DNA from: an archaeon
Lineage (GTDB): Archaea; Asgardarchaeota; Thorarchaeia; Thorarchaeales; Thorarchaeaceae
NCBI GenBank assembly: GCA_024275415.1
Contig: JAJRZD010000013.1
Location: 1-29,443 of the forward strand
Direction of reading: 5' to 3'
Length of the DNA: 29,443 nucleotides
Part shown: positions 2,847 to 4,767 of the stretch, one piece after another
How positions within the stretch are numbered: position 1 is the stretch's first letter
Layout: each line of letters starts with the position of its first letter
Position numbers and translations under genes: made by a program
The notes under the pieces: model-generated
Database searches by the model: none
What the model was told of the DNA's origin: nothing
The model's input: the letters and a program-made list of their open reading frames with translations, nothing else

Positions 2847-3865
2847 CTGAACGTGTAAGGTTCATATACGGACTCTTTTCCGAGGAGGAACCTGACGAGT
2901 AGGCGGGCTTGACTCTGAAAGAGTCTTGAAAGGGACATGGATTTGGTGCCTGTGATCTTCACCTCAGACTCTATTGTCTTGAGGATGGCAGTGACAAGTG
3001 TACGCTTCGTTGTCTGATCCATGATGACCCGGCTACCGTCTTGCTCAAAGCCGTCAAGCGAAACCTGCTTGAGTGATAGCAACTTGATGACTGTGCGGTC
3101 TATTGCCACCTGTCGGAACTCTTCGACCATGTCCAGGACAAGTGAAGGTTTCCCTGACCTGTCAGCGTGGAGGTATCCGGCAAAAGGTTCCAAGCCACAG
3201 GCAGAAATTGCAGTAAGAATCCTGCTGTAGAGGATGGCGTACCCATACGATAGCATCGCATTCACGGGGTCTGTCGAAGGCCTCTTAGCTCGACCAGTGA
3301 ATCCGAAATCTTCCTGAACGACCATCTGTAAGCCTGTGAAATACAATTTTGCAGCTTGTGCCTCAAGGCTCATCAGTGTCTGCCTCATCATGTTGGGAGT
3401 TCCAATCTCACATTGTCCTTCCACGTCGATATCGCCGATCATCTCAGCAAGCCGGTTCAGCTCGTCAGCAATATCAGAATCATTTGACTGGCGGTTCCGA
3501 GCCCAGTACTGGAGCATCCTCTGTCGATTTCGTTGTGCCCCAAGCACAAATGCCCGTGCAAGATGTCCTCCCCTAAAATCGTTGTAGGCGTTCAGCTGCT
3601 CACGCCTAGTATGAACAGTGCCATGGTTAAAAAAGGGATGGACAATAGCATATGGCTGACCTGACCGGATCATCACAAGAGGGATACCATTCTGTGCCAG
3701 CAGCTCGATTGCCTGTGAGCTGATCGAGCAATTCGCCATCACGATGACCTCTGTGAGATTGTATAGTGACCGCCTCGAAGGAGAACCTTCGGAAGGCTTG
3801 ATGTATAGTGACCGTCCACGCTTTCCAAGAAATGTGCCGTGTGAGTCAATAACAACACTCATCAT
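2840..3865 (-). CDS. cas1: CRISPR-associated integrase Cas1
   Basis: LMSLEAQAAKLYF, R..RP..DPVNAMLSYGY, GYLH, SLVLDMVEEFR: catalytic Glu/His/Asp pattern of Cas1. Confidence 0.97.
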   Translation of the reverse strand: MMSVVIDSHGTFLGKRGRSLYIKPSEGSPSRRSLYNLTEVIVMANCSISSQAIELLAQNGIPLVMIRSGQPYAIVHPFFNHGTVHTRREQLNAYNDFRGGHLARAFVLGAQRNRQRMLQYWARNRQSNDSDIADELNRLAEMIGDIDVEGQCEIGTPNMMRQTLMSLEAQAAKLYFTGLQMVVQEDFGFTGRAKRPSTDPVNAMLSYGYAILYSRILTAISACGLEPFAGYLHADRSGKPSLVLDMVEEFRQVAIDRTVIKLLSLKQVSLDGFEQDGSRVIMDQTTKRTLVTAILKTIESEVKITGTKSMSLSRLFQSQARLLVRFLLGKESVYEPYTFRW

Positions 3866-4767
3866 ATCGCCCCCACAAGACCCCTGCCTCGATTCTTTGC
3901 GATACTGGTCAGGGTGATGACATCCTCGTGCCTGAAACCTATGACAGGGCCAGCAAAAAGAGAAACCTCACCTTGAATGAACATGGGCTCCGGCTCATAC
4001 TACATTTCGGTCCGAGTGTCGGATTCAAGTTCATAATGCCGTGAGAAATCTCCTTTCATGAATACGGGGAGTTCTTCTTTCTTGACCCACAAACGAATTG
4101 AGGATGGTAATGGAGTGACAAGACTTCCGTTTATAATCCATTCGACCTTCTGGGCATTGGTCACAAATGTGGTGATGGATAACTCCTCAGAAAGGTATGA
4201 TTCAGTTTCCAAGGCAACACCAAGGCTCGCCACTGGCCCAAGGGCGACCCACTGACCGGCCCCTTGCGAAAGTAGGCGCTTCGTAAAACCTAACTCACAT
4301 CCATCCTTACTCATGCGAGAGATGCCAACCTTCGGGACTCCGCATACCGAGGCGATGTAGACCATCCATGGTGCATAGCACACTGACCTCGCCCAGCCTG
4401 ATACCTCACAAGGAGGATCGTCCAATGTGCAATCCTTCTCAAATGGCATTCCGGGCCCTTCATGGATGCACCGGAGCCGTCGTCCAAGATCGGATGCTTC
4501 ACATCGTCCACACATCCCACCAGACCCGATGACTTCTGTGCCACACCATGAGCAATACCACTGACGTGAGAACGTGAGGTAGTGGTTGCCTATGAGAGGA
4601 AATGCCCCTTCGCCAACGTCATCAGTGAAAAGCACCATTGGCATCGCAATCCCGTTGATCCACCTGTACTCGAAACCTGCAATCACTGCCGTGACCATTT
4701 GGGAATCGGAGCTGACTGTTTCCGAGGAACTCGCAGTCCTATGAAGGTATTCTATAAGAGATGACAT
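3862..4767 (-). CDS. DUF2797-like Cys-rich protein (GIY-YIG-like core) interrupted by an in-frame TAG at 4002-4000; pseudogene or readthrough product
   Basis: CSWC/CGRC Cys pairs, then VYIASVCGVPKVGISR...KRLLSQGA, matching the DUF2797 VYLA..KVGxT..R..xQGA motif. After the TAG the frame continues YEPEPMFIQGEVSLFAGPVIGFRHEDVITLTSIAKNRGRGLVGAI to a TGA at 3864-3862, overlapping the cas1 ATG (ATGA). The start could also be ATG 4698. Confidence 0.75.

Follow-up and report, generated by a model that had tools for sequence, protein, structure and literature searches.

Does the gene that heads a cas1-cas2-cas4 operon in a Thorarchaeaceae archaeon belong to the CRISPR adaptation machinery, and if so, what does its product do? 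The question is raised by a 29,443-nt stretch of contig JAJRZD010000013.1 (assembly GCA_024275415.1), analysed here at its full length and called the window, in which a gene of the DUF2797 family stands ahead of cas1. Accessory nucleases set which DNA becomes a spacer, with which protospacer-adjacent motif (PAM), length and orientation, and those known in adaptation are Cas4, Csa1 and DnaQ-like exonucleases. An initial annotation of the window proposed the gene as a new adaptation factor, coupled to cas1 in translation and encoding a putative metal-binding nuclease. The reading favoured here, to which we give a probability of about 50%, is that the gene is a member of a cas1-linked DUF2797 clade and the first gene of a DUF2797-cas1-cas2-cas4 operon, that its family in this setting encodes a metal-binding DNA nuclease acting on prespacers, and that the copy in the window is interrupted by an amber codon.

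Linkage of DUF2797 to cas1 across Asgard archaea

The product of minus-strand positions 4767-4000 (ATG at 4767; 255 codons under translation table 11) is a member of the DUF2797 family (Pfam PF10977), as had been recognised at the outset. The Pfam model matches it at 33.7 bits, above the gathering cut-off of 25 (E 4.4e-08, profile positions 6-126 of 227). The gene lies between the leader (4768-5287) and cas1 (3865-2840) on the cas1 strand, in agreement with the initial annotation, which had also called for a survey of DUF2797 neighbourhoods for recurrent linkage to cas1. The neighbourhood survey is strongly positive on this point, with at least 13 Asgard families and three effector subtypes, and it excludes the case in which homologues never stand beside cas genes elsewhere. 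All four metagenome homologues with enough flanking sequence show the order DUF2797-cas1-cas2-cas4, beside cas6, cas3', csc1, csc2 and cas10d. Among the 30 best genome matches from the phylum, cas1 and cas2 follow directly downstream on the same strand in 28, with cas4 as well if the locus extends that far; one of the two exceptions is a contig end and the other a housekeeping paralogue. In most loci DUF2797 and cas1 overlap at their stop and start codons or are at most 28 nt apart.

The linkage can also be counted from the side of cas1. When the coordinates of a Cas1 census were matched by hand to the DUF2797 matches, about 35 of the 116 intact Asgard cas1 loci had DUF2797 directly upstream on the same strand (35 of the 90 cas1-bearing genomes, in 13 families), and csa1 occupied the same upstream slot in about 9 of the 116. 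The effectors beside the cassette are of type I-D in the window's family, of type I-A in one genome (G007; Csa3, Cas3'', Cas3', Cas5a, Csa2 and Csa5) and of type I-B in another (G117; Cas8b, Cas7b, Cas5b and Cas3). Since the effector module varies among these three subtypes, the gene follows the adaptation module, whichever effector stands beside it. Moreover, pairwise distances of DUF2797 and Cas1 are correlated (Mantel r 0.83, reached by 0 of 5000 permutations), which fits long co-inheritance, with a contribution from the relatedness of the hosts. By its conserved neighbourhood, a recurrent, lineage-spanning and same-strand linkage, the cas1-linked DUF2797 counts as a cas gene, and cas1 is not its neighbour by chance. 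The homologue sources, where named, are all Thor-, Loki- or Odinarchaeota, and a profile search of genome contigs with one alignment (A5) returned one Thorarchaeota contig alone.

The same observations bear on the idea that the gene is a selfish homing endonuclease of the GIY-YIG type, or that it plays no part in CRISPR and is an unrelated neighbour of cas1. Homing endonuclease genes often carry GIY-YIG and T5orf172 domains (PMC9040626), but position and orientation are fixed in at least 13 families, the gene co-diverges with Cas1, the cas1 association is clade-wide and absent from sister lineages, and there is no intron or intein context. Such an origin is very improbable, and the homing endonuclease was rejected on its fixed position and on the co-divergence with cas1.

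The cas-linked proteins form a clade of their own within a larger family. DUF2797 comprises 1092 representative clusters, 58 of which match the cas-linked profile at E <=1e-30, and all 29 cas-linked members also match the Pfam DUF2797 model. In a FastTree phylogeny of 159 sequences, a branch with 100% Shimodaira-Hasegawa-like (SH-like) support parts all 29 cas-linked rows from five housekeeping paralogues. In each of four previously unsampled clades on the cas side of this branch, cas1 follows the gene, whereas two clades across the branch are not cas-linked. The window's own genome (G000 in locus labels) has a second DUF2797 gene of the latter kind, 19% identical in protein sequence to the window copy and not cas-linked. 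It lies in the region G000:C9 ~36758-39619 (L001:295-3156), directly after an AmmeMemoRadiSam radical SAM gene (TIGR04337, E 5.5e-86), and is followed by two paralogous 280-aa proteins without a known family. This AmmeMemoRadiSam-DUF2797 neighbourhood is kept in five genomes of the family and may hint at an ancestral role of DUF2797. Flavobacterial members have been linked to GH3 genes (PMC9425974).

Variant arrangements were also observed. At L059:2234-6009, and likewise in G053:C173, G054:C56, G055:C8 and G056:C129, a short cas1 is divergent from DUF2797; in L059 a second cas1, with cas2 and cas4, follows DUF2797, so that two cas1 genes flank it. On one metagenome contig (L061:451-7823), an SMC_N gene and a Piwi (prokaryotic Argonaute) gene stand directly before cas6-DUF2797-cas1-cas2-cas4 on the same strand.

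The cas1-linked DUF2797 gene has no entry in cas gene catalogues and annotation models. It occurs at about 30% of the cas1 loci of the archaea closest to eukaryotes and makes a strong candidate for a CRISPR gene that has gone unrecognised. In a search of 8 million papers, to which the Asgard CRISPR census (PMC7307682) was external, five mention DUF2797, and never in a CRISPR context; literature on GIY-YIG or T5orf172 together with cas1 gave nothing relevant.

Predicted fold and the case for a nuclease

The architecture of the protein comprises N-terminal beta strands, a CxxC...CxxC zinc ribbon (C72/C75 and C86/C89), a second four-Cys cluster (C100, C113, C120 and C130) and a GIY-YIG-like core at residues ~132-246. 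The Cys pairs and the motifs VYIA (136-139), KVGIS (146-150) and KRL (163-165), on which the idea of a nuclease was originally based, are all present in the translation. Across the 29 cas-linked sequences, which share 20-50% identity, the invariant residues are C72, C75, C86, C89, Y137, K146, G148, R164, Q168, E189, G273 and G294.

Structure prediction argues for a GIY-YIG fold. AlphaFold2 models of the protein read through the amber codon reached a predicted local distance difference test (pLDDT) score of 82 and a predicted template modelling (pTM) score of 0.76, and residues 126-250 modelled alone reached a pLDDT of 91.5. Both models were compared exhaustively, by a tool other than Foldseek, with 48,161 PDB chains. 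The top four chains for the full model are all GIY-YIG nucleases (HIGLE, Slx1 twice and UvrC), as are the top six for the domain model (Slx1 twice, HIGLE, PD-T4-3, UvrC and I-TevI). Z scores are 5.1 for Slx1, 5.0-5.1 for HIGLE, 3.9 for PD-T4-3, 3.8-4.0 for UvrC and 3.4-3.7 for I-TevI, over 63-88 aligned residues, and AlphaFold DB clusters named GIY-YIG and MUG113 also match. The protein shares with these matches the beta-beta-alpha-beta-alpha core of the superfamily, though at a Z of just 3.4-5.1. In the model, the invariant Y137 lies in strand 1, K146-x-G148 in strand 2, R164 and Q168 in helix 1 and E189 in helix 2. From this topology we infer that Y137, R164 and E189 may be equivalent to the GIY-YIG catalytic residues, and the protein, a member of the superfamily at the level of fold, probably works like a GIY-YIG-type nuclease. 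T5orf172, a branch of GIY-YIG, includes an experimentally characterised nuclease, Odn of ICP1 (PMC9040626).

Several results weigh against a nuclease. A Z of about 5 is below the level that the comparison tool treats as safe for a shared fold, and Foldseek searches of PDB with the full and the domain models gave no match at E <=0.001, all values being above 0.2. The GIY-YIG, T5orf172 and MUG113 Pfam models pick up none of the 29 members even with the E limit set to 10, and in these genomes the Pfam GIY-YIG model picks other genes, not DUF2797. Alignment by hhalign to canonical small GIY-YIG proteins gave a probability of 4%; its one segment pairs E189 with the canonical Glu and is not significant. 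Additionally, the second canonical Tyr is replaced by Lys (K146-V-G148, the Lys being invariant), so the second motif of the superfamily is lacking. Nor does membership of the family by itself imply a nuclease, since other DUF2797 lineages have metabolic or housekeeping neighbourhoods. The likeness to GIY-YIG seen in the initial annotation holds for the fold, where all top matches agree, and fails for sequence, where profile hidden Markov models of the superfamily find nothing. The Cas_Cas4, Csa1 and PDDEXK_1 models match neither the window protein nor the 29 members, which sets the clade apart from the Cas4/Csa1 family. A complex prediction of Cas1 with DUF2797 (both from L004, alignments supplied) scored 0.01, which is no verdict and has no weight either way.

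The main rival reading is an adaptation factor that is not a nuclease, namely a DNA-binding or regulatory protein in which a degenerate GIY-YIG-like domain is combined with a zinc ribbon and small beta barrels. Such a protein could mark the leader-repeat junction for Cas1-Cas2, or could control transcription of the operon from the divergent promoter region. In its favour, the gene adjoins the leader, the terminal strands match small barrels of the Tudor, CarD or KOW kind, the second canonical Tyr is missing and GIY-YIG sequence models give no match. The zinc ribbon, furthermore, weakly matches RecR and other nucleic-acid-binding zinc fingers. However, Tyr, Arg and Glu are invariant, across 20-50% identity, at the places that the GIY-YIG catalytic residues have in the topology, which is easier to explain by catalysis. 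The first-gene position with the stop/start overlap points to a stoichiometric partner over a regulator, and the type I-A locus already has a regulator of the Csa3 type. On balance, a protein without nuclease activity appears unlikely. As to the zinc finger itself, a profile made from the cas-linked clade shows weak similarity to the RecR Cys4 zinc finger and the start of the next domain (PDB 5z2v, E 0.005), the RecR-like segment being residues ~45-112 of P0001 (window ~4432-4635, minus strand). A profile search of PDB sequences returned weak matches of this RecR type alone.

In the reading favoured here, the protein would combine the zinc ribbon and the second Cys cluster with a GIY-YIG-like core carrying Tyr137, Lys146-x-Gly148, Arg164, Gln168 and Glu189, and would cut or trim prespacers together with Cas1-Cas2 and Cas4. 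As the gene occupies the slot that csa1 has in csa1-cas1-cas2-cas4, we propose that it encodes the second prespacer-processing nuclease of these modules, a job that Csa1, a second Cas4-family nuclease, does from the same slot in cassettes of other archaea. If this is true, a GIY-YIG-like fourth gene would be a new solution to prespacer processing, unrelated to the known nucleases. A more far-reaching version is put forward tentatively. In it, the clade would be a genuine, unnamed Cas family and the first GIY-YIG-type adaptation nuclease, defining one prespacer end beside Cas4 in about a third of Asgard modules and replacing Csa1. In the window's genome, the amber codon would possibly be read through, and the full protein as well as coupled translation of cas1 would then depend on suppression.

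The amber codon and the layout of the locus

The initial annotation did not mention that the window copy is interrupted. Under table 11 its open reading frame (ORF) stops at the in-frame TAG at 4002-4000, 135 nt short of the cas1 start, and a 301-codon frame that overlaps cas1 exists solely if this codon is read through. The reported overlap of the stop with the cas1 start is therefore half right: the ATGA at 3865-3862 is in the sequence, but the frame reaches it only through the TAG. Likewise, the proposed translational coupling to cas1 applies to the intact homologues and, because of the amber codon, fails for the window copy unless the codon is decoded.

The part of the gene behind the TAG is conserved. 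At the position of the TAG itself, homologues have a variable residue (R, E or others). Alignments to homologues of about 300 aa in Thor- and Lokiarchaeota metagenome bins cover the entire read-through protein, including the 45 residues behind the TAG. This tail contains the invariant G273 and G294 as well as G266, near-invariant in the 29-member alignment, and 25 of its 45 residues are identical to those of the nearest homologue, P0003 (counted by hand from the alignment). The N- and C-terminal strands weakly match small Tudor, CarD or KOW-like barrels in alignments spanning residues 25 to 301, which suggests that the tail is part of a folded domain. The window copy is alone in having an internal stop among all DUF2797 matches in 400 Asgard genomes.

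Most probably, the window copy carries a nonsense mutation of very recent date, or is a variant of the assembly or of the population. As assembled, it has lost the C-terminal beta domain that the family conserves as well as its translational coupling to cas1, and we infer a loss of function. Two observations pull the other way. The tail is undecayed, its identity to the nearest homologue being 56% compared with an overall 50% (hand count), as would also be expected if the gene were intact, read through or mis-assembled, and at least three other genes of the genome have a TAG inside a Pfam domain. The window is thus a poor exemplar of the clade but a natural test of spacer acquisition without an intact copy.

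The gene would be intact in the cell if the TAG were decoded, by read-through or suppression, or if it were an error of the assembly or consensus. A full 301-residue protein would then be made, with its stop overlapping the cas1 start. Behind the TAG, the tail is free of other stops and of frameshifts, retains every conserved residue and finishes precisely at cas1, and a Pfam domain spans the in-frame stop in three of the ten best TAG candidates (an M28 peptidase, a radical SAM protein and a HATPase_c protein), compared with one of four for TAA and none of five for TGA. However, 3/10 and 1/9 do not differ significantly, and the numbers are too few for a TAG-specific effect. In a genome that is 93% complete, no pylS, pylD, pylB or pylC (TIGR02367, TIGR03911, TIGR03910, TIGR03909) was found above cut-off, and ARAGORN found no tRNA with a CUA anticodon, although the few tRNAs detected leave this absence unproven. 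TAG is a common terminator, ending 688 of the 1965 confident genes (35%) and about a third of long ORFs, and in-frame coding-like sequence follows TAG in 6.1% of these genes and TAA in 6.4%. Furthermore, GC-to-AT mutation makes TAG a frequent nonsense codon. An intact gene is therefore doubtful, and so is site-specific amber read-through in the window copy. Pyrrolysine or TAG reassignment as a genome-wide code was rejected: there are no pyl genes and no tRNA-CUA, TAG is a common terminator and read-through is not in excess.

The interrupted genes noted elsewhere in the genome (loci L121, L123 and L124) include a Peptidase_M28 gene at G000:C122:52260-53255 (+), a Radical_SAM gene at G000:C11:1057-2112 (+) and a HATPase_c gene at G000:C58:17818-18924 (-). 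Their in-frame TAG falls inside the Pfam domain, at codons 185, 198 and 269, respectively. In a purH-like gene (L128; G000:C125:7401-8936) the in-frame stop is a TAA, at codon 162 and within the AICARFT match. These stops come either from read-through or from nonsense alleles or assembly errors in unusual number. A tRNA-Sec (anticodon TCA) is predicted at G000:C69:8832-8922 (-), and the archaeon thus probably decodes some UGA as selenocysteine.

The features of the locus are collected in Table 1. The genes for cas10d, csc2, csc1 and the 5' part of cas3' lie on another contig of the genome, at the end of C6, where they were found by tblastn with the type I-D proteins of L004 as queries, and the system is of type I-D. 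The last (far) repeat of the array is degenerate, which places the leader on the DUF2797 side, adjoining the 5' end of the gene. The consecutive repeat-spacer units at 5434-5507 and 5508-5581 are 100% identical, so that spacers 3 and 4 from the leader are duplicates. Past the distal end of the array, at 8450-12528 (+), ORFs of 349, 319 and 568 aa stand in a row without a Pfam or NCBIfam match. A second Cas1 homologue is present on an 8.9-kb contig (G000:C26:579-1400, minus strand; Pfam Cas1 E 2e-69) and shares ~21-25% identity with the Cas1 of the window.

Table 1. Features of the adaptation locus, with positions in the window
Feature	Position	Strand	Basis
Type I-D cas3' helicase gene, 3' part	1..1104	+	Pfam Cas3-like_C_2
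cas6	1104..1958	+	Pfam CRISPR_Cas6
cas4	1969..2562	-	Pfam Cas_Cas4 and PDDEXK_1
cas2	2553..2846	-	Pfam CRISPR_Cas2, E 7.7e-18
cas1	2840..3865	-	Pfam Cas_Cas1, E 3.8e-77
ATGA junction: TGA of the read-through frame (3864-3862) over the ATG of cas1 (3865-3863)	3862..3865	-	Sequence
45 open codons behind the TAG, matching the conserved C-terminal beta domain of the DUF2797 family	3865..3999	-	Alignments
In-frame amber codon TAG, codon 256	4000..4002	-	Sequence, alignments
DUF2797 gene, 255 codons before the stop	4003..4767	-	ORF list, translation, Pfam DUF2797
Intergenic 520 bp: leader and presumed divergent promoters, between the minus-strand adaptation operon and the plus-strand array	4768..5287		
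CRISPR array, 25 repeats of 37 nt ending in ATTGAAAG (plus strand)	5288..7115	+	

The upstream region also contains short repeated motifs. Two exact copies of the 11-mer ATTAGATAAAG lie in the leader and promoter region, at 4800-4810 and 5140-5150 (minus strand), and the whole window has three matches at <=1 mismatch against 0.44 expected. One copy, about 35-45 nt upstream of the DUF2797 ATG, is placed like a TATA box; the 11-mer is not kept upstream of close DUF2797 homologues. In the loci L012-L016 of family f16, the palindrome GGAAATATATTTCC is followed by TTTATAT about 60-90 nt upstream of the DUF2797 start, and the two may form a regulator site and a TATA box for the adaptation operon. 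A search with Rfam gave zero matches within the window, and a promoter scan of the window returned bacterial-type sites only, which is uninformative for an archaeal host.

Comparison with known systems

Csa1 is the closest counterpart by position. It is a Cas4-family PD-(D/E)XK nuclease that heads csa1-cas1-cas2-cas4, mainly in type I-A systems. Like that of DUF2797, its gene immediately precedes cas1 on the shared strand of a cas4-bearing cassette, and both proteins are Cys-rich putative metal-dependent nucleases. Cassettes headed by csa1 and by DUF2797 both occur in Asgard archaea, though not in one locus: csa1 queries found none in the DUF2797 loci examined and none in the window's genome, and DUF2797 takes the place expected for csa1 in G007, whose locus is of type I-A. 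The two proteins have no relation in sequence or fold, the core of DUF2797 being GIY-YIG-like and not RecB-like. In Sulfolobus, Csa1 and Cas4 act jointly to fix the length and orientation of the spacer as well as both of its ends, PAM and distal (bioRxiv 10.1101/486738). The role of Csa1 is thus known by experiment (10.1101/486738), whereas the one given here to DUF2797 is a prediction.

In the GIY-YIG superfamily (Slx1, the N-terminal domain of UvrC, I-TevI and HIGLE), which supplies the best structural matches, the beta-beta-alpha-beta-alpha core is predicted to be the same, and DUF2797 joins it to a zinc-binding module in the manner of Slx1. In contrast, the second motif of DUF2797 is K-V-G and not Y-I-G, no superfamily sequence model matches, and the protein has beta domains at both termini and eight conserved Cys beyond the core. 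Housekeeping DUF2797 proteins of archaea and bacteria belong to the same Pfam family (PF10977) and have the same overall predicted fold as the cas-linked clade, but the housekeeping paralogue falls on the other side of the fully supported branch and is never found beside cas genes. Cas4, the established nuclease for prespacer trimming and PAM selection in adaptation modules, is encoded in the same operon as DUF2797 and has a different fold. Since Cas4 is also present in nearly all of the cassettes, DUF2797 is an addition to it and not a replacement.

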